Numbered from the stretch's first letter, positions 6,475-14,006 are shown. The stretch: DNA of 30,232 bases from Herpetosiphon sp. NSE202 (GCF_042688385.1 NZ_JBHUPY010000007.1:386110-416341); one strand, 5' to 3'. Notes: a model not told the origin generated them from the sequence alone. Numbers and translations are program-made.

Positions 6475-6846
6475 ATGTTTAAAGAGTTCAAGGAATTTGC
6501 TTTCAAAGGCAACGTGCTCGATTTGGCAATCGGTGTAATTATTGGGGCTGCCTTTGGCAAAATTGTCACGGCCTTGGTCGATAATATTTTGATGCCATTA
6601 ATTGCTGCTTTCTTTGCTAAACCTAACGTTGCTGAGTTGCAATTTATGGTTGGAAAAACTCCAATTGTCTATGGCGTATTTGTCCAATCAGTCATCGACT
6701 TTTTGCTCGTCGCTATCGTCTTATTTGGGGTTGTCAAAGCAATTAACATTACCCGTCGCAAGCAAGAAGCCGAAGCGCCAGCCGCGCCACCACCAAGCGA
6801 AGAAGTGCTCTTGCTGCGCGAAATTCGCGATAGCTTGCAAAAGTAA
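6475..6846 (+). CDS. mscL: Large-conductance mechanosensitive channel MscL
   Basis: MFKEFKEFAFKGNVLDLAIGVIIGAAFGKIVTALVDNILMPLI... is near-canonical MscL. 123 aa with two TM segments and a charged C-terminus. Confidence 0.9.
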   Translation: MFKEFKEFAFKGNVLDLAIGVIIGAAFGKIVTALVDNILMPLIAAFFAKPNVAELQFMVGKTPIVYGVFVQSVIDFLLVAIVLFGVVKAINITRRKQEAEAPAAPPPSEEVLLLREIRDSLQK

Positions 6847-7105: not shown

Positions 7106-8203
7106 TTATGGCTCAAGCTCAATCTGCCAAATTGCCCCTTCATGCAACAGTAAAAACTCAGTCTGATTCAACGCCTGCAAATCAGTAACCAAGCGTGGTT
7201 GGCCAGCAGCATCATTAATTGGATAGACCTGGGTTGGCGACCAATAGACCAAACTATTGCTATCCAAGGCCCGCACCAAAACCCCATCGCGATACCACAC
7301 CAATGGCTCGACCCCCAAATTGGTGGCTTGAATCGAATTCAGGCTTGGCTCGTAGATCCGAAAATCATCGCCCAGATAATAGGCTAAGGCTCCGCGCTTG
7401 TTCCAGAGCATTCTAGGTATGCTCGTGCCACGCTGGCTTTGATCGAGCAGCTGAATTTGATTGGTTTGCAGATTATAGAGGTGTAACTCTAAAGCAGCTT
7501 GGTCGCGCACTTGCACCAACAAAGCCAGTTGATCGCGATTAGGGCTAAGTTGCAAGCCACCAGCTACCAACTGCCGCTGGGGCAGGCGAATAATCACTTG
7601 CTCTTTGCTCGTACCACCAACTTGCATAATCCGCAGGTCGTTATCACCCGCTGCATAATACAAGGCACTTTGGGTCATCAAGGCTGCTTGCACCAAGCCA
7701 TTGGTCGAAGTCAGCACGTGCAATGCTTGGCCACTAAATGGCTCGATCGCTTGCAGCAGATCAGGCTCCTGTTGCGAACGCCACAAAAGCAAAGCCCCAT
7801 CACTTGACCAACTCAGCGCTTGGCCTTGATAGCGACGACTAAGCTCGATAAAATTCAAACCTGGCGCATGCAATTCAAACTGATCTTGGCTAATCGATTG
7901 GGTAATGAGCCATTGTTGGCTTGGCGCAAGCGGGCCAAATTGAGCACGAATAACGCCATTCGCCGCCACCAACAATTGATCGCTAGGGCTAAGTGCAGTG
8001 GTCGCGCTGGCGGTTGGCTTGAGCAACGGCGTTACCGTCGCAGGATTGCTGCTCGGCGTTGGACGAGCGGTGGCCCGCACCACGAAGCTTGGCGTTGGCC
8101 GCAACTCCAAGGTCGGAATAACCACAGCGGTTGGTTGCTGCTGGGCCAAATCACACCCATACAACAGGCCAATTAGTACCAAAACAATATAGAATCGTTT
8201 CAT
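7106..8203 (-). CDS. Lipoprotein with Pro/Thr-rich linker and TolB-like beta-propeller repeats
   Basis: N-terminus MKRFYIVLVLIGLLYGCDL is a lipobox with Cys. A PT-rich low-complexity linker follows. The rest has repeated LSxDGxxLx motifs typical of WD40-like/TolB propellers. Confidence 0.6.
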   Translation of the reverse strand: MKRFYIVLVLIGLLYGCDLAQQQPTAVVIPTLELRPTPSFVVRATARPTPSSNPATVTPLLKPTASATTALSPSDQLLVAANGVIRAQFGPLAPSQQWLITQSISQDQFELHAPGLNFIELSRRYQGQALSWSSDGALLLWRSQQEPDLLQAIEPFSGQALHVLTSTNGLVQAALMTQSALYYAAGDNDLRIMQVGGTSKEQVIIRLPQRQLVAGGLQLSPNRDQLALLVQVRDQAALELHLYNLQTNQIQLLDQSQRGTSIPRMLWNKRGALAYYLGDDFRIYEPSLNSIQATNLGVEPLVWYRDGVLVRALDSNSLVYWSPTQVYPINDAAGQPRLVTDLQALNQTEFLLLHEGAIWQIELEP

Positions 8204-8221
8204 ATCACCATGCTATAATAA

Positions 8222-8872
8222 ATGCTGGAAACGGTTATCAGCAACAGGCAGCCTATGACGAATGATCCAATCATTGCGACCGCACCACGACTTATAATTC
8301 GTCGCTGGCAACGGGTAGATTACCAAACCATGGATCGCTGGCCACCTTTCACCGAACCTTTAAGCAGCATTTGGAACTTACCAGATCGGGTGACGGTTGG
8401 CGGCGATTGGATGAACGACATCCGGCGAACCTATGCGATTGTTCTGCGTGATAATACCCTAGTTGGGCGAATTACGTTACGCAACATTGATTCGGCTAGT
8501 GGCTCGGCACGGCTTGGGATTACAATTGGCGCACCCTATGTGAGCCAAGGCTATGGCACCGAAGGCTTAGCCGCCTTTCTCCAAGCATTTTTCAGCACCC
8601 TTGGCTTTCAAACCATGGTGCTCGATGTGGCTTCAGTTAACGAACGAGCTGTACGCTGCTATCGGCGGCTCGGCTTCCAATATAATGGTCATCATTGGCG
8701 TGATGCTGGCTGGCGTTTTATGCAAACGCTCGATCAAGCCACCCGCGAACGCATCGCCCCCTTTATCAAGGAAGGCCGTCACGGGGTGTGGGTACAATTT
8801 TACGACATGACGCTCGCCCGCAGTGATTGGCAAGCGGCTCAACATCGGTCAGTTATCCACGTTAATCAATAA
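8222..8872 (+). CDS. GNAT family N-acetyltransferase (RimJ/RimL-like). Start may be ATG 8255.
   Basis: Contains VGRITLRNIDSASGSARLGITIGAPYVSQGYGTEGLAAFLQAFF...ERAVRCYRRLGF, which covers GNAT motifs A and B. TATAAT at 8213-8218 directly abuts ATG 8222, so ATG 8255 (MTNDP) is the more plausible start. Confidence 0.7.
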   Translation: MLETVISNRQPMTNDPIIATAPRLIIRRWQRVDYQTMDRWPPFTEPLSSIWNLPDRVTVGGDWMNDIRRTYAIVLRDNTLVGRITLRNIDSASGSARLGITIGAPYVSQGYGTEGLAAFLQAFFSTLGFQTMVLDVASVNERAVRCYRRLGFQYNGHHWRDAGWRFMQTLDQATRERIAPFIKEGRHGVWVQFYDMTLARSDWQAAQHRSVIHVNQ

Positions 8873-8885
8873 AAGAGGAAGCAGT

Positions 8886-9431
8886 ATGTCGCTGATTGCA
8901 GGAAACTTGGCAGTTGTTCAAAAACTACTCGACGGTGCGCAAATGGCGTGGGGCATTTATGGCGGAGCCGCAGCTCACTTCTATGGCAGCCGTCGCCCAA
9001 TTAATGATATTGATATTGTGGTGCCAGCCAACATGCTGAGCGAAATTGCCCGCTTGTTGCAGCAAGGCCAAAAGGCAGTGCAGTACGATGGTGGGCGCAT
9101 TTTATGGCGTGGGATTATTCTGCAAGAGGATCTGACGATTCGCCAAAATGGTGCTGTTTACCCGTTTGTGCTCGATCAACCAATGATCGAACGCCTACAA
9201 CGCAAGCCATTGCTTGGCTCACGGGTGCTCTTTTTGGCTCCCGAAGATATTTTGGTCCACAAATTAATTTTGTATCGTGGTTCAGACCAACAACGCTTCG
9301 ATATTGTCGATTGCGAAGGCATTATCAAGCGCCAACAACTCGACCTTGAATATCTGAGCCAACGCCTGCAAAGCAGCAACGCCACTGCCCTCGTTACCCC
9401 ACGCATCGCCGAAATGGGCGTAACGCTGTAA
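8886..9431 (+). CDS. Nucleotidyltransferase-fold protein, Lnu/ANT-like (lincosamide/aminoglycoside nucleotidyltransferase-like)
   Basis: MAWGIYGGAAAHFYGSRRPINDIDIVV resembles the GG/GS...DIDI signature of minimal nucleotidyltransferases (Lnu(A) has WLDGGWGVDVL...HRDIDIDF). 181 aa. SD AAGAGGAAG is upstream of ATG 8886. The track start 8823 overlaps the GNAT gene. Confidence 0.55.
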   Translation: MSLIAGNLAVVQKLLDGAQMAWGIYGGAAAHFYGSRRPINDIDIVVPANMLSEIARLLQQGQKAVQYDGGRILWRGIILQEDLTIRQNGAVYPFVLDQPMIERLQRKPLLGSRVLFLAPEDILVHKLILYRGSDQQRFDIVDCEGIIKRQQLDLEYLSQRLQSSNATALVTPRIAEMGVTL

Positions 9432-9435
9432 GTTT

Positions 9436-9473
9436 AAAGGCATTGTGGGTGCATTGCTCAGAATGCCTTTTTG
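9436..9473 (+). terminator. Hairpin plus T-run after the nucleotidyltransferase gene
   Basis: AAAGGCATT...AATGCCTTTTTG. 9-bp stem, internal loop, and a T-tract. Confidence 0.5.
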
Positions 9474-9496
9474 ATTGAACCCTGACCGATAGAACA

Positions 9497-10258
9497 TTGC
9501 TTATGCTAAAAACAACCCAACCTCAACATCCGATCGCCTGGACTTTAGGCAATTGCTTGCTCTTTTGCGGCATGTATTTGTTGTTGTATGTTGGCGGCAT
9601 GTACGCCGACGATTTTTACAATCAACAAGCAGCGCGCGGCGATAGCACGCTGCCAATCGCTGCGCCCATCATTGCAACTGCCGAGCCTGAACTTGGCGCC
9701 TTTCAAGCCCCCCAATTAAACGCCAATCCGCTCAGCGACCAACCTAATGCCAATGTTCCAAGCGAACATTCAAGCATCAGCCGGATTCAAATTCCACGGA
9801 TCGAGGTTGATCAGAAGGTGATCGAGGTTGGTTGGGAGTTAATCGATGGCGTGGCAACATGGCAGGTTGCAAAATACGCCGTTGGCCATCATCAAGGCAG
9901 CGCCAACCCCGGCGAAGCAAGTAATATCGTCTTGGCGGGCCATGTTGGCGGCTCGGCGCCCGTGTTTGATCGCTTGATTGAAACCCAGCCAGGCGACCAA
10001 ATTGTGCTCTATAGCAATGGTCAGCAATATCTGTATGTGGTGCAATCGAATGAGCGTGTGCAAGAAGTTGGCATTTCGGCAGAACAACGCCTGACCAATG
10101 CTGCCTATATGAACCCAACTCCTGCTGAAACCATTACCTTGATTACCTGTTGGCCGCCAACTGGCCCCAATGCCTTCGATCAGCGGATTATTGTGCGAGC
10201 CGTTCCCTACACCAGCGCTTCGGAGCAACCAGCAGGTAGCAATTGGCAGATGCGCTAA
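9497..10258 (+). CDS. Sortase family transpeptidase (N-terminal TM anchor; class E/F-like)
   Basis: VLAGHVGG (catalytic His region), TLITCWP (TLXTC active-site Cys motif) and a conserved Arg region. One N-terminal TM segment. TTG start in the track; ATG at 9503. Confidence 0.8.
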   Translation: MLMLKTTQPQHPIAWTLGNCLLFCGMYLLLYVGGMYADDFYNQQAARGDSTLPIAAPIIATAEPELGAFQAPQLNANPLSDQPNANVPSEHSSISRIQIPRIEVDQKVIEVGWELIDGVATWQVAKYAVGHHQGSANPGEASNIVLAGHVGGSAPVFDRLIETQPGDQIVLYSNGQQYLYVVQSNERVQEVGISAEQRLTNAAYMNPTPAETITLITCWPPTGPNAFDQRIIVRAVPYTSASEQPAGSNWQMR

Positions 10259-10340
10259 ATCAAGCTGCAACAAAATTTTATAGCCTATCGTCAGATGAAC
10301 AGCTATTGACAATTCTGTGTCATCACGAAGGGGCTACACC

Positions 10341-10859
10341 ATGACAAAACGAACTTTAGGCTTGCTATTGATTGGAGCAGGGATTATTGCCCTCTTCAGC
10401 AACATTGGGAATGGCTTGTTTGGCCGCGACCACGATTATCGTGAGTACGAAGTGCGTCAAGCAATGCATTTTCAAATGCATGAAGATTTTGCCCAGCCCG
10501 AGGTCGAATTTAACGAAGGAATGGCTGATTTTCAGGCCGAGATGAGTGATATTCAAGCAGAAATCAGCGAGGCTGTAAACTCACATTGGCAAGATAATGC
10601 TGCCGAATTCCACGAAGAAATGGCCAACCTGCGCGCCGAAATGCAAGATGCGCAAGCTGAAATGTATGAGGCCCAAGCTGAAATGCATAGCGCAATGCCA
10701 GCCAACGGCTTTGCAGATTCACGCTTCGAGCACGGGCCACGCCATCGCGGTGCACCATTCGGCTTCTTGCTGTTTCCCTTATTAATTGGTGGTGGGATAT
10801 TCTTGTTGGTTCGTCGCCGCCGCATGGTTGTGCGCCGCCACCAAGTCCAGCACTTCTAA
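10341..10859 (+). CDS. Hypothetical bitopic membrane protein with AQAEM-type acidic coiled repeats
   Basis: N-terminal TM (LGLLLIGAGIIALF). A central region carries repeats FQAEMSDIQAEISEA / ANLRAEMQDAQAEMYEAQAEMHSA. C-terminal TM plus poly-Arg (FGFLLFPLLIGGGIFLLVRRRRMVVRR). Track start is GTG 10317; ATG 10341 has GAAGGGG upstream. Confidence 0.55.
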   Translation: MTKRTLGLLLIGAGIIALFSNIGNGLFGRDHDYREYEVRQAMHFQMHEDFAQPEVEFNEGMADFQAEMSDIQAEISEAVNSHWQDNAAEFHEEMANLRAEMQDAQAEMYEAQAEMHSAMPANGFADSRFEHGPRHRGAPFGFLLFPLLIGGGIFLLVRRRRMVVRRHQVQHF

Positions 10860-10879
10860 TTAGCGCTTCGAGTCTATTC

Positions 10880-10916
10880 AAAAGCCCCTGCAATGACGGT
10901 TGCAGGGGCTTTTTTT
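10880..10916. terminator. Bidirectional rho-independent terminator between convergent genes
   Basis: AAAAGCCCCTGCAA-tgacgg-TTGCAGGGGCTTTTTTTG. 11 to 14-bp perfect stem flanked by A- and T-tracts. Confidence 0.75.
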
Positions 10917-10948
10917 GCGCTTAGAAAATAATTGATCAGGCTGGCAAA

Positions 10949-12346
10949 TTAGCCAAGCACGCGGTTAAGGTTAGCTTCGAGTTTTTGGCGTAAATCACGG
11001 CGCACTTGCTCGCCAGTTGCAGGCGTGGTCAGTAAACCAGCCACAATCCCCAAAATAAATGAGCGCAGGCCGGTGCGTGCGCGGCGGCCTTTGCGGCCAA
11101 CCTCGGTGGTTACTTCACCAGTTTTATGGGCGATTGTTTGGGCTGCTTGCTGGGTCGTTTCGCCAACGATATGCGCAGTTTCTTTGGCGCGGCCACCAAC
11201 AACCGAGGCAGCATCTTTAGCGCGCTCGCCAACAACCGAGGCGGTTTCTTTGGCCCGCTCGCCAACTACAGTTGCAACATCCTTGGCCCGTTCGCCAACC
11301 ACTGAGGCCGTTTCTTTGGCGCGGCCACCAACAACCGAGGCTGCGCCTGCAACTGCTGGAATAACCGTTGCGCTTACATCTTGGGCCTTGGCGCTCACGG
11401 TTTGGGCAACCGAACGCAAGGCATCGGGCGCATGCTCACGAGCTTCTTTAGCGCGTTCGCTGGTTGTTGCCAAAAATTCTTGCACAATGCCACTCAAGCG
11501 TTGCACCAAATCGCTGGCTTGATCACGAGCATCAGCGCCTTTGCTGCTCGCCACATCAACCGCGCGATGGCGTAAATCGTCTGCTTGTTCAAGTACAGTT
11601 TCGCTGCTGCTGCTCAAACGATCGCGTACTTCATTCAAAATGGTTTTAGCCTTATCAGCCAAGGTTTCGCCTTGATCCATCGCCTGTTCGCGCACATCGG
11701 CCAAACGGCTACGGGCATCGGCGCTTTTGCTGCTTGCAGCTTTCACCGTCTGATGGCGCAAGTCGTCGGCTTGCTCAAGCACGGTTTCGCTGGTGCTGCT
11801 CAAACGATCGCGCACTTCATTCAAGATATTTTTGGCTTTATCGGCTAAGGTTTCACCTTGATCAACTGCTTGATCGCGTACATCGGCCAAACGGCTTTTG
11901 GTTTGGTCGCCCAAATCGTTGGCCCGATCGCGGCTGGCGGTAGCAACCGCAGCTAAGCCAGCAGTTGCAGCGCTCAACAACGAACTACCTTTATCGCGAC
12001 CTTGAGCGGCTTTTTTGCCAAGTTGGTCAACAGCATGTTCAACTTGATCGCGGCCAGTTTCCAAGCTCGCATTCAAGCGTTGATTGGCGTTCTTGCCAGC
12101 TTTGCGCAATTTCTTTTGCTCGCGTTTCAGTTCTTTGCGGGCTTGTTTGCTGAGGCTATGCAAATAGCTATTGGCATCGGCAGCCCGATGTTCAACTTGA
12201 TCGCGGAGATTTTCGGTGAGCAAGGCGACTTTTTCGCCCAAGCTGGTTGGATGATTGCGGCGGCTGCGTGCGCCCAATACCCCACCAATCACACCACCAG
12301 CAATCAGTGCGGCAGTCAATAATGGTTGTTCTTTTTGCTCATTCAT
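10949..12346 (-). CDS. YtxH-domain-anchored LEA/apolipoprotein-like repeat protein
   Basis: Start at MNEQKEQ with an AAAGGAG SD. The track start 12427 is a GTG inside the repeat flank. N-terminus LLTAALIAGGVIGGVLGARSRR and C-terminus FILGIVAGLLTTPATGEQVRRDLRQKLEA are both YtxH-like (TM plus G.ELR) motifs. The interior has five 11-aa repeats (ASVVGERAKET) and a duplicated block of about 62 aa (ETLADKAK.ILNEVRDRLSS.SETVLEQADDLRH...). It is highly charged with many Ala, Asp and Arg, and is predicted helical. Confidence 0.6.
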   Translation of the reverse strand: MNEQKEQPLLTAALIAGGVIGGVLGARSRRNHPTSLGEKVALLTENLRDQVEHRAADANSYLHSLSKQARKELKREQKKLRKAGKNANQRLNASLETGRDQVEHAVDQLGKKAAQGRDKGSSLLSAATAGLAAVATASRDRANDLGDQTKSRLADVRDQAVDQGETLADKAKNILNEVRDRLSSTSETVLEQADDLRHQTVKAASSKSADARSRLADVREQAMDQGETLADKAKTILNEVRDRLSSSSETVLEQADDLRHRAVDVASSKGADARDQASDLVQRLSGIVQEFLATTSERAKEAREHAPDALRSVAQTVSAKAQDVSATVIPAVAGAASVVGGRAKETASVVGERAKDVATVVGERAKETASVVGERAKDAASVVGGRAKETAHIVGETTQQAAQTIAHKTGEVTTEVGRKGRRARTGLRSFILGIVAGLLTTPATGEQVRRDLRQKLEANLNRVLG

Positions 12347-12427
12347 AATCAATAACTCCTTTGCTCTACGATTCGAGCACGTATCTGCCAAACCTATAGC
12401 AAACCCTATACCAAGCGTTTGATCCAC

Positions 12428-12781
12428 GAGGGGTCAGGGGCTAGGGATCAGTTACGGAAACCACAATGAGGGATCAGGGGTCAGAGGTTAGGGATCAGTT
12501 ATGGAAACCGCGAAGGACACGAAGATCGCGAAGTTATTTTTTGCCTCAGATTGATCCACGAAGCACACGAAGAGCACGAAGAACCGGAACCACGAAGGAC
12601 GCTAAGATCACGAAGTTATTTTTTTGCCCAGATTTCCCTGATTATATTTACAATAACCCATCGCCCAAAGCCAATAGTCAAGAGCCTTTCATCCCTCATC
12701 CTTCATAATTCGTCCTTAAAAGAAAGAGGATCGAGCTACTACTAGCCCAATCCCCTATGCTCTACTCTATGTTCTATGTTC
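12428..12781. repeat. Composite repeat array. G-rich heptamers with an AGGGATCAGTTAYGGAAACC duplication, then CACGAAGNR nonamers, then reverse AACATAG heptamers.
   Basis: Direct reading. The module order mirrors 2569-2862 in the opposite orientation. Track ORFs 12466..12708 and 12551..12745 lie entirely within the repeats and are likely spurious. Confidence 0.8.
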
Positions 12782-13747
12782 TTAGTTCGTTACGGTTGGA
12801 ACAGGGCTGCTTGGTGGACTGAGCACACTTGCAGCAACCCAGCCACGGCCTGTGCCATCGGGCAACTGAATTTGATACCAATCGCCTGATTGACCAAGCA
12901 CTTGCACGCTATCGCCAGCCTTGAGCTGGGCAATCGGGTCGTTATTGGTATTTGGCGCAGGCCGCACATTGGCGGTTGGAGCGGTTACGCTAGCGGTTGC
13001 TGGAGCCACGGTTGGCGTAGCAGCAGTATCCACGGTTGGCGTTGCCTCAGCCTCATCATCTTCTGGGTCTTCGCCCTCAGCGGTATCTTCGCTAACCGGA
13101 GTTGCAGTGGGCAAAATTGGCGTAACCGCCGTGCCCCACGCTGCATGATTTGATTGATTAAGTGCGCCACGCACGGTCGTAATTCGTTCATTGGCCCAAA
13201 ATAAGGCAATAAACGCTACTGCAACTAATAACGCAATCCGAATTGGGTCAGAAAGCCGCAGGATGGTGCTACTGCGTTGCATCTCACGCAAGGCGGCAGC
13301 AGCGCTGGCGGCAACTGGCTCGCCCCAACTGGTGCGGCTGCGATCATCGCGGGCAACCCGCCGCAAGGCCAGCAGGGCCCGACCATCGCCAACTTTGCCC
13401 AAAGCGCGCACCGCAGCCCAACGCACGTTGCTGTTGGGGTGATTGAGTGCTTGGCTCAAGGGGCGGCTGGCCCGACCATCGCCAATTTGGCCCAAGGCTT
13501 CGGCGGCTCGATAGGCCCGCAACCACGGATATTTTGGATCAAGCGCTTCGATCAGCAAGGGAACTGCTTGCGCCCCCAAGCGAATCAAATCGTCTTCTGC
13601 TCGTTCGTGGTTGGGATCGTTGGCATTATCTAAGGCAACGACCAACTGGCGCAATTGCGCATCGGCAACCTGTGGCGGAGCTGCTTCGGGCCGGGCCTGC
13701 GATGGCTGCGGCTGGCGCGGCTGTGATGGTGGTACTTGATCAGTCAT
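12782..13747 (-). CDS. HEAT-repeat (PBS-lyase-like) / TM / SH3b-domain protein
   Basis: N-terminus is Pro/Gln-rich. Tandem HEAT-like repeats follow (...VPLLIEALDPKYPWLRAYRAAEALGQIGDGRA...NSNVRWAAVRALGKVGDGRA...). There is one TM (IALLVAVAFIALFW). The C-terminus is SH3b-like (LKAGDSVQVLGQSGDWYQIQLPDGTGRGWVAASVL). The start is ATG 13747 or GTG 13798; neither has a clear SD. Confidence 0.55.
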   Translation of the reverse strand: MTDQVPPSQPRQPQPSQARPEAAPPQVADAQLRQLVVALDNANDPNHERAEDDLIRLGAQAVPLLIEALDPKYPWLRAYRAAEALGQIGDGRASRPLSQALNHPNSNVRWAAVRALGKVGDGRALLALRRVARDDRSRTSWGEPVAASAAAALREMQRSSTILRLSDPIRIALLVAVAFIALFWANERITTVRGALNQSNHAAWGTAVTPILPTATPVSEDTAEGEDPEDDEAEATPTVDTAATPTVAPATASVTAPTANVRPAPNTNNDPIAQLKAGDSVQVLGQSGDWYQIQLPDGTGRGWVAASVLSPPSSPVPTVTN

Positions 13748-14006
13748 ATCAGCGAATCTCGAATATGCATTAATTAATAAGGATGGTGTTGCCAGCACTC
13801 AGGCCAATTGCAACCCTCGCATTGTACCAGAGAAAGCAAGTTCAAATATCCACAGCACAATCCTGACCAGCAAACCAATCAGCAGCTGGTCGCTTTGCCA
13901 ATTGAATCAAATGGGCTATCCAAAGCGAATATGGTACAATTGATCTATATGCAGCCCGTTGGCGCGTTCGCAAACGGCTGTTTTTTTAGGGCAAACACGA
14001 GAGTTT

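Follow-up and report, generated by a model that had tools for sequence, protein, structure and literature searches.

A stretch of 30,232 nucleotides (nt) from Herpetosiphon sp. NSE202 (GCF_042688385.1 NZ_JBHUPY010000007.1:386110-416341), here called the window, was analyzed around two convergent open reading frames (ORFs) located between positions 10341 and 12346. Gene B is transcribed from the plus strand and gene A from the minus strand. The original prediction, made from the nucleotide sequence alone, placed a convergent gene pair in this interval, and its coordinates bracket both ORFs exactly. As judged from profile matches, gene A encodes a YtxH-family protein in which a long amphipathic region lies between an N-terminal anchor and a C-terminal YtxH motif, while gene B is probably the last gene of a sortase-containing cluster. 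The two genes and the element between them are as follows.

10341-10859, plus strand: gene B, 172 amino acids (aa), a two-pass membrane protein found only in Herpetosiphon; an ORF with no Pfam or NCBIfam family
10880-10913, both strands: bidirectional terminator hairpin between the stop codons of genes B and A, a perfect 14-bp inverted repeat
10949-12346, minus strand: gene A, 465 aa, YtxH-family protein by profile match, with N-terminal anchor, long amphipathic helix and C-terminal YtxH motif

The hairpin between the stop codons has a folding energy of -30.8 kcal/mol (z -4.9) on the plus strand, where it is followed by seven U, and of -27 kcal/mol (z -4.3) on the minus strand, where it is followed by four U. 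It is kept in all relatives, and a compensatory double change from T:A to G:C is present in H. aurantiacus. By its folding energy and its conservation, the terminator that the two genes had been predicted to share is real. The only result of an Rfam scan of positions 9000-14000 was a match of Thr_leader to this hairpin, which was discarded as a chance match (21.8 bits versus 55).

The YtxH-family protein encoded by gene A

The features of gene A, and the distant homologue used for comparison, are listed below. Residue numbers refer to the 465-aa protein.

12269-12322, minus strand: N-terminal hydrophobic anchor, rich in Gly and Ala, aa 9-26 LLTAALIAGGVIGGVLGA, followed by RSRR; from Kyte-Doolittle hydropathy, not YtxH by Pfam
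11072-12244, minus strand: continuous amphipathic region, aa 35-425, with a period of about 3.64-3.67 residues
11699-11884, minus strand: first copy of a 62-aa block, aa 155-216; 96% nt identity with copy 1 of H. giganteus, 76% with copy 2 of the window
11513-11698, minus strand: second copy of the 62-aa block, aa 217-278; relatives carry one, two or three blocks
11174-11338, minus strand: five tandem 11-aa units, (S/T)VVG(E/G)RAK(E/D)xA, aa 337-391, from Tandem Repeats Finder; relatives carry four to six
10973-11056, minus strand: C-terminal YtxH motif, aa 431-458 FILGIVAGLLTTPATGEQVRRDLRQKLE, the best Pfam YtxH stretch, preceded by the basic cluster RKGRRARTGLR
12347-12431, minus strand: conserved non-coding leader and promoter region of gene A, near-invariant in the genus and including AAGGAG
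L014:16-1533 (metagenome contig JGI12273J12029_10239390): homologue of gene A, 505 aa, with termini as in gene A

The gene A protein matched the Pfam YtxH profile (PF12732) at 45.9 bits (E=7.8e-12), above the gathering score of 37.5 bits, so that the profile check bore out the assignment to this family. The orthologue of H. aurantiacus scored 39.4 bits and the distant homologue L014 51.8 bits. When the protein was scanned piecewise, the C-terminal motif at aa 431-458 (profile positions 9-36) gave 26.8 bits and the central helices (profile positions 26-68) gave 32 bits, and no match was obtained with the N-terminal 112 aa alone even at E<=10. YtxH-type motifs had been proposed at both ends of the protein; the C-terminal one is confirmed and the N-terminal one is not. 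The C-terminal motif is invariant in the genus, and it is also present in the distant proteins P0008, P0010, P0012, P0018 and P0022. On this profile evidence the gene A product is a YtxH-family protein, and its arrangement is inverted relative to that of canonical YtxH proteins, making it a new architecture of a known but uncharacterised family.

The hydrophobicity of aa 35-425 is strongly periodic. Its power was 257 at 11/3 residues and 361 at 3.64 residues, compared with a mean of 9.2 (sd 9.1) for shuffled sequences, and was almost zero at 3.5, 3.6 and 3.75 residues. Over the 391 residues the phase changes gradually, by only about 140 degrees, and only two prolines are present in the region. 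Autocorrelation peaks at lags 11, 22, 33, 44 and 55 agree with the 11-mer periodicity that had been predicted. All seven orthologues of gene A show the peak at 3.64-3.67 residues, whatever their repeat copy number. For L014 the power was 436 against a shuffle maximum of 79, and P0010 and P0039 were also periodic; the same test of P0012 detected no peak.

The distribution of residues around this helix was examined relative to the hydrophobic moment. At the centre of the apolar face (0-40 degrees) 61% of residues are apolar, mostly Ala with Leu and Val. Lys and Arg make up 25% of the interface (80-120 degrees) versus 10% elsewhere, and Asp and Glu make up 41% of the polar face (120-180 degrees). 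This charge layout is the class-A amphipathic pattern. AlphaFold2, run with the single sequence, placed helices at residues 36-115, 120-266, 271-439 and 446-464, with a mean predicted local distance difference test score (pLDDT) of 62.5.

Only one 19-residue Kyte-Doolittle window of the protein exceeds 1.4, that of the anchor at aa 9-26. The N-terminal tail of eight residues has a net charge of -1, RSRR follows the anchor, and RKGRRARTGLR precedes the C-terminal hydrophobic motif. From these charges around both hydrophobic ends, the positive-inside rule predicts that the long helix is cytoplasmic. The ratio of non-synonymous to synonymous substitution rates (dN/dS) is 0.03-0.06 overall and does not exceed 0.12 in any segment, repeats included, indicating that the protein is constrained and functional.

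The original prediction likened the gene A protein to LEA, apolipoprotein and perilipin proteins. The likeness holds for the physics of an 11-mer amphipathic helix (power of 257 versus 9, class-A charges) and fails for membership in the LEA family: LEA_4 (PF02987, gathering score 51.1 bits) gave no match with the protein at E<=1, nor with its fragments at E<=10, and L014 reached only 18 bits against the same cut-off. The Pfam Apolipoprotein profile (PF01442) gave E=6.8e-15 and 55.7 bits, below its 90-bit cut-off, and among the PDB sequences only marginal matches to apoA-I and SHERP were found (E of about 0.1).

One protein of the representative library, P0007 (1331 aa), carries HAM1_N, LEA_4, YtxH and Apolipoprotein matches together. 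YtxH-type and LEA_4-type segments can thus coexist in one polypeptide elsewhere.

The two kinds of repeat differ in length and copy number. Tandem Repeats Finder detected a 33-nt unit present 4.9 times at 11181-11341 (73% matches), which accounts for the five 11-aa repeats already noticed from the sequence. The 62-aa block is present twice, as also claimed, at 11525-11710 and 11711-11896 in the register of the repeat finder (186 nt each, 82% nt identity). In the protein register the copies share 76% nt and 79% aa identity, and their codon differences comprise 20 synonymous and 13 non-synonymous ones. With nt identities of 76-82%, the copies are not nearly identical, contrary to the claim; nor is the duplication recent. 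Compared with the corresponding blocks of H. giganteus, copy 1 of the window shows 96% identity and copy 2 shows 97%; since each copy is nearer to its orthologue than to its sister, the duplication is older than the divergence of at least four species. The numbers of 62-aa blocks and 11-aa units in gene A are as follows.

H. aurantiacus and LCH85: one 62-aa block, four 11-aa units
Window: two 62-aa blocks, five 11-aa units
H. giganteus, H. geysericola and H. llansteffanensis: two 62-aa blocks, six 11-aa units
MFD03066: three 62-aa blocks, five 11-aa units (four by strict pattern match, five by alignment)

These differences track the phylogeny. In L014, other internal segments are duplicated (58 aa twice, 22 aa three times and 11 aa two to three times), independently of the 62- and 11-aa duplications in Herpetosiphon. 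At a period of 3.64 residues, units of 11, 22, 58 and 62 aa shift the phase by only 8 to 24 degrees in size, and because the shift is small for every duplicated length, the independent expansions keep the amphipathic stripe of the protein.

The ATG of gene A at 12346 is preceded by an AAGGAG ribosome-binding site located 9 nt upstream, at 12356-12361. The seven orthologues share this start Met, and their N-termini are all of the type MN, MK or MT followed by EQ. The region of about 85 nt 5' of the ATG is near-invariant across the genus, and the presence of 1- and 2-nt insertions or deletions (indels) in the relatives indicates that this leader is non-coding. An alternative GTG start at 12427, which would give a 492-aa ORF, was ruled out by the ribosome-binding site, the start codons of the orthologues and the frame-breaking indels. 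Consensus folding of the leader detected zero compensatory pairs and no covariation, and for this reason no RNA structure is claimed.

Further upstream of gene A, the segment 12429-12640 is dense in short direct repeats; it is hypervariable, and Herpetosiphon species differ in it by large indels. It includes a 34-nt unit present twice (12429-12462 and 12476-12509), the 24-nt unit GGCAAAAAATAACTTCGYGATCTT, also present twice, and runs of CTTCGTG/CTTCGCG. Further copies of these repeats are absent elsewhere in the window.

In the genome scan, gene A was carried only by Herpetosiphon giganteus, H. geysericola, H. llansteffanensis, H. aurantiacus DSM 785, whose genome is complete (finished), and one uncultured Chloroflexia genome. 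LCH85 (L003), a second metagenome-assembled genome with gene A, was reached via gene B, and the orthologues are thus distributed over four named Herpetosiphon species and two metagenome-assembled genomes. The window is nearest to H. giganteus, with amino-acid identities of 99% for RecN and 100% for the HEAT/SH3 protein.

An exhaustive phmmer comparison of the gene A protein with 1.84 billion representatives yielded one match below 1e-30, a 92-aa Herpetosiphon fragment, together with 85 weak matches of the amphipathic or YtxH type. P0010, P0012 and P0022 match the plan of the gene A protein, including an N-terminal hydrophobic segment, a basic region, amphipathic repeats, a C-terminal basic cluster and the YtxH motif. 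A word-index search with the full-length protein returned 8000 candidates, none of them significant, and missed even the orthologues of 87-96% identity, probably because low-complexity words saturated the index. A profile search with the C-terminal motif gave ten short YtxH fragments, all without usable genomic context. Finally, a metagenome scan with a 2-sequence alignment as the query detected L014, a complete and more distant homologue, and L015, a C-terminal fragment with downstream context.

Gene B and the sortase cluster

The features of gene B and of the genes preceding it on the same strand are listed below.

10350-10424, plus strand: first transmembrane helix of the gene B protein, aa 4-28, from hydropathy
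10509-10694, plus strand: acidic, Met-rich heptad part of the predicted extracytoplasmic loop, aa 57-118, with xxQAEM units; a 21-nt tandem repeat
10755-10856, plus strand: second transmembrane helix and RRRRMVVRRHQ tail, aa 139-172, from hydropathy; near-invariant in the genus
9497-10258, plus strand: sortase gene, 82 nt upstream of gene B, with motifs LAGH, TLITC and RIIVR
8222-9431, plus strand: GNAT acetyltransferase (Acetyltransf_3) and NTP_transf_5/DUF2204 nucleotidyltransferase genes, from Pfam; the listed ORFs overlap

The gene upstream of gene B matched Pfam Sortase (PF04203) at 90 bits, against a cut-off of 26.6, and the catalytic His, Cys (TLxTC) and Arg are present. Its best NCBIfam model was that of class E, with 70.8 bits, under the 160-bit cut-off. 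The adjacency of the sortase gene and gene B on the same strand is kept in all loci examined. The GNAT, nucleotidyltransferase and sortase genes and gene B are separated by short intergenic gaps, gene B being the last of the four same-strand genes, and no intergenic terminator-like site was seen before the hairpin at 10880. Gene B is thus probably the final gene of a GNAT-nucleotidyltransferase-sortase cluster, which may constitute an operon.

Two hydrophobic segments, at aa 4-28 and 136-160, were found in the gene B protein, in agreement with the two-transmembrane protein originally described, and the chain ends in the tail RRRRMVVRRHQ. The soluble part had been described as consisting almost entirely of (A/D)QAEM repeats. 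This is an overstatement: the heptads, about seven units of the xxQAEM type at aa 57-77 and 88-118 in which Met recurs at one heptad position, occupy only about 45% of a loop of about 110 aa. Autocorrelation peaks were detected at lags 7 and 33. The whole protein has a net charge of -10, and from the distribution of charges both ends are predicted to be cytoplasmic, with the acidic loop outside. AlphaFold2, run with a 5-sequence alignment, gave a mean pLDDT of 47.8 and a helix of low confidence in the loop.

The termini of the protein (residues 1-30 and the last 40 or so) are near-invariant in the genus, with dN of 0-0.05, while the loop is variable with indels of one heptad. Compared with the three closest species, residues 1-30 have a dN of 0; with L009 and L010 the value is 0.03. 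Searches of the gene B protein against Pfam and NCBIfam gave no family and those against the PDB sequences gave nothing; among 5.8 billion proteins only four homologues were found, all from the same lineage, in addition to the genome loci.

One segment of the loop, aa 31-75 (10431-10565), diverges from the three closest species far more strongly than any other coding sequence in its vicinity, with 60-81% nt identity per 100-nt bin compared with 92-100% in the flanks. For this segment dN is about 0.48 and dS is saturated, and in the adjoining first transmembrane helix dN is 0. The divergence is partly a register shift of one heptad, and the pattern suggests a recombined allele, or one with reshuffled repeats, rather than simple positive selection. 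Metal binding by the Met/His-rich loop, as in SilE/PcoE, was considered and rejected, the Metal_resist match being insignificant (E=0.22) and the His positions not conserved.

The position of gene B invites comparison with actinobacterial SafA, a small membrane protein whose gene directly follows that of the housekeeping sortase; SafA binds the transmembrane segment of the sortase and protects it from signal peptidase (PMC9282373). SafA consists of 52 aa with one transmembrane helix, a PGP motif and an exoplasmic FPW motif, and is found in Actinobacteria only (PMC9282373). By this analogy, gene B may be a positional and functional analogue of SafA, not a partner of gene A. Most likely, its product would act with the sortase in the membrane, with its near-invariant helices embedded there and its variable heptad coiled-coil loop outside.

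The gene order MscL, lipoprotein, GNAT, nucleotidyltransferase, sortase, gene B, gene A, HEAT/SH3 and RecN is collinear throughout the genus. The MscL mechanosensitive channel gene is located at 6475-6846 on the plus strand. At 7106-8203 on the minus strand lies the gene for a conserved 365-aa protein with a lipoprotein-type signal, MKRFYIVLVLIGLLYGC, and no Pfam or NCBIfam match. The gene adjoining gene A, at 12782-13798 on the minus strand, encodes a membrane protein with HEAT repeats and SH3. The MscL and HEAT/SH3 neighbours are envelope-related; nothing ties them functionally to gene A or gene B. Downstream of the gene A homologue on L015 (L015:586-3139) are the genes for a helix-turn-helix protein of the XRE type, for a 390-aa protein with an HNH-like C-terminal region and for a cytosine-5 DNA methyltransferase-like protein. 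From reading of the translations only, these look like a restriction-modification island.

Possible roles of the two proteins

Taking both genes together, we tentatively propose, with somewhat less than even confidence, that the gene A protein coats and stabilises the cytoplasmic face of the membrane, that the gene B protein is a sortase-associated membrane protein, and that the two are independent genes sharing one terminator. An 11/3 helix gives a straight apolar stripe, which is suited to a lipid surface. The straight stripe of Ala, Val and Leu in the gene A protein, flanked by Lys and Arg, could lie flat on the inner leaflet. The protein would be held at both ends, and its 391 residues, if fully helical, would extend over about 59 nm. 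By analogy with the SigB-dependent stress protein YtxH, LEA group 3 proteins, apolipoproteins and perilipins, such a doubly anchored coat might stabilise the membrane. Its length would have been altered in evolution by tandem duplication of 11, 22, 58 or 62 residues with the phase retained.

Several observations weigh against this proposal. The 11/3 periodicity and the Ala-rich core also fit straight (hendecad) coiled coils, and a dN/dS as low as this is seen more typically where proteins pack specifically against each other than where lipid is bound loosely. With its length of about 13-17 residues, the C-terminal hydrophobic stretch of the gene A protein is rather short to cross a membrane. 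The AlphaFold2 models of both proteins are of low confidence and usable for secondary structure only, and a Foldseek comparison of the gene A model with the PDB gave nothing significant (best E of 0.19, to generic long helices). No functional study of YtxH turned up in the literature. On the side of gene B, the adjacency to the sortase gene could reflect the genus-wide gene order, which is collinear from MscL through RecN. The gene B protein also differs from SafA in having 172 aa, two helices and a heptad loop of about 110 aa, in lacking PGP and FPW, and in belonging to Chloroflexota. If the membrane-coat and the sortase-partner ideas both fail, the locus consists of two lineage-specific genes of unknown function.

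A more specific form of the coat may also be considered, speculative and unlikely as it is. The gene A protein would then define an unrecognised bacterial class, the "extensible amphipathic strap": a single helix of about 47-67 nm with 11/3 periodicity, pinned at both ends to the cytoplasmic face of the membrane and tuned in length from species to species by in-phase duplication. That such a protein serves as a membrane-coating scaffold, or as one sensing curvature or packing, in filamentous Chloroflexota is an equally speculative suggestion. Phase-preserving modular variation in the length of a very long amphipathic helix is the most attractive feature of the gene A protein. If true, this form would offer a concrete mechanism for the YtxH family and a bacterial counterpart of perilipins and apolipoproteins. 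The natural length variants (392, 465, 476 and 527 aa, and 505 aa in the distant homologue) make the protein a convenient model with which to test whether YtxH proteins lie on the membrane.

Two other readings of the gene A protein are serious. In the first, which we regard as unlikely, it is a hendecad coiled coil with an Ala core, forming bundles or filaments that are tethered to the membrane at their ends and serve the filamentous cell as a cytoskeleton or spacer. The coherence of the 3.64-3.67 periodicity over about 390 residues, the dominance of Ala at the centre of the apolar face (28 of the 72 residues), the extremely low dN/dS in all segments including the repeats, and the three very long helices predicted by AlphaFold2 are all consistent with such a structure. 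The class-A arrangement of charges, with Lys and Arg at the interface and Asp and Glu opposite, is however the pattern of a lipid surface. In addition, the family links lead to YtxH and, below threshold, to apolipoprotein, ApoLp-III and phasin rather than to known cytoskeletal coiled coils, and Foldseek gave no significant structural match.

In the second, slightly less probable than the first, the protein coats an intracellular inclusion such as a lipid droplet, a wax ester or a polyhydroxyalkanoate (PHA) granule, as phasins, perilipins and apolipoproteins do. Sub-threshold matches to ApoLp-III, ApoC-I and Phasin_2, in addition to that to Apolipoprotein (E=6.8e-15), point in this direction, but all of them fall short of the curated cut-offs and reflect composition and periodicity, and the PDB match to apoA-I has an E of only about 0.1. 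An amphipathic 11-mer architecture is typical of perilipins and apolipoproteins. The short C-terminal hydrophobic motif could enter a lipid monolayer, whereas the N-terminal segment resembles a bilayer anchor, and no storage-lipid or PHA genes are present in the neighbourhood.

For gene B, an alternative to partnership with the sortase is that its product is a non-canonical substrate of the adjacent enzyme, with a signal peptide, a repeat domain displayed on the wall, and a sorting signal composed of the helix and the Arg-rich tail. The three-part layout and the sortase gene directly upstream agree with this possibility, which we nevertheless consider improbable. Weak NCBIfam matches to LAVTG and LAETG sorting signals were obtained at aa 147-161 (E=0.005, 16.9 bits), but these cover only the helix and tail, remain below the 27-bit cut-off, and are accompanied by no LPXTG or LAXTG pentapeptide in the protein. 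An invariant MPA tripeptide precedes the C-terminal helix; it is located 17-20 residues from the helix, far for a sorting signal, and the next two positions vary (NG, HG, AP). A signal-peptidase site of the AXA type is not evident, and the near-invariance of the hydrophobic segments and the 15-residue tail (dN 0-0.05) would be unusual for parts that are cleaved and discarded. Nothing on sorting signals of Herpetosiphon or Chloroflexi was found in the literature.

The original prediction suggested that genes A and B may form a desiccation or envelope-stress module, in which an LEA-like protector would act with a repeat-containing membrane partner. This combination is not supported and we hold it to be as improbable as the substrate reading of gene B. 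The adjacency of the two genes is kept in every Herpetosiphon-type locus, and in LCH85 the block from the 365-aa lipoprotein gene through gene A is intact even though the outer flanks differ (MinCDE and methylmalonyl-CoA mutase); but the whole 9-kb region is collinear in the genus, so that synteny is weak evidence and adjacency alone says little. The conserved terminator is common to both genes, which are convergent and hence not co-transcribed. While an osmotic-stress channel gene, that of MscL, lies 3.5 kb away, gene B is linked on its own strand to the sortase gene, and the positive-inside rule predicts the soluble domains of the two proteins on opposite sides of the membrane. Moreover, gene B has no homologues outside Herpetosiphon, and L015, the sole distant relative of gene A with readable downstream DNA, has XRE, HNH and Dcm-type genes and neither gene B nor a sortase gene. 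The lack of an LEA_4 match likewise speaks against an LEA-like protector.

Finally, it is very improbable that the repeat structure or copy number of gene A in the window is an assembly artefact, in spite of its five 11-aa units against six in the three closest relatives and of exact-sequence look-ups (465 aa and 492 aa) that returned no second record and so no independent match for the count of five, because the copies have diverged (62-81% identity in 63-nt registers, 76-82% in the 186-nt blocks) and are distinguishable in reads, the reading frame is intact with a dN/dS of 0.03, and the copy number tracks phylogeny in independent assemblies of the same architecture, including the finished genome of H. 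aurantiacus DSM 785. With nt differences of 18-38% between copies, the danger of mis-assembly or collapse that had been raised is unlikely.

Comparison with known systems

Proteins with a YtxH domain occur widely among bacteria and respond to general stress in Bacillus by induction, with no known mechanism. In Bacillus subtilis, ytxH belongs to the ytxGHJ operon. The gene A protein shares with the YtxH profile (PF12732) a hydrophobic helix followed by (A/T)P-x-(S/T)-G-x-x-x-R, its amphipathic segments fit the C-terminal half of the profile, and every match to its C-terminal motif carries PF12732. The canonical proteins in Pfam have 100-143 aa and an N-terminal motif of the form AP-x-SG-x-x-x-R, whereas gene A and its relatives encode 392-527 aa with the motif at the extreme C-terminus. 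A second anchor, not of the YtxH type, is present at the N-terminus, and about 390 amphipathic residues lie between the two. The gene A protein is thus an extreme and clean example of the family, its hydrophobic motif being well apart from the amphipathic helix and its 11/3 phase being kept over about 390 residues. The only functional link for the family is the membership of B. subtilis ytxH in the SigB general-stress regulon (PMC7824861).

With LEA group 3 proteins the gene A protein has in common tandem 11-mers and an amphipathic helix of 11-residue periodicity, in which one face bears small apolar residues and the charges form stripes. Its hydrophobic anchors and its strong constraint at the residue level set it apart from LEA proteins, which as a rule are soluble and disordered. 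The class-A layout and the 11/3 periodicity are shared with apolipoproteins, perilipins and alpha-synuclein (PF01442, PF07464; the "3-11" helices). In contrast to these, the protein lacks Pro-punctuated 22-mers, is bacterial, is predicted to face the cytoplasm, is anchored at both ends and has no fold match. The resemblance to this group is convergent, not homologous.

ElaB, YqjD and YgaM (DUF883) are tail-anchored stationary-phase stress proteins of E. coli. The gene A protein follows the general plan of that family, in which a helical region in the cytoplasm and basic residues are combined with a hydrophobic anchor at the C-terminus. It is far longer, however, and has a second anchor and a different C-terminal motif; its NCBIfam ElaB match was not significant (E=0.98).

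The gene B protein resembles LPXTG/LAXTG sortase substrates in its N-terminal hydrophobic segment, its C-terminal helix with an Arg-rich tail and its sortase neighbour, and differs from them in the lack of the pentapeptide motif and in its invariant termini. Its likeness to SafA is one of position and conservation: both are encoded directly downstream, on the same strand, of a sortase gene, of class-E-like type in the case of gene B, and both have strongly conserved transmembrane sequences. Similarity in sequence between the two is not shown, and the gene B protein has only an FPL, inside its second helix. Membrane partners of sortases, known only as SafA in Actinobacteria, might thus also exist in the monoderm Chloroflexota.

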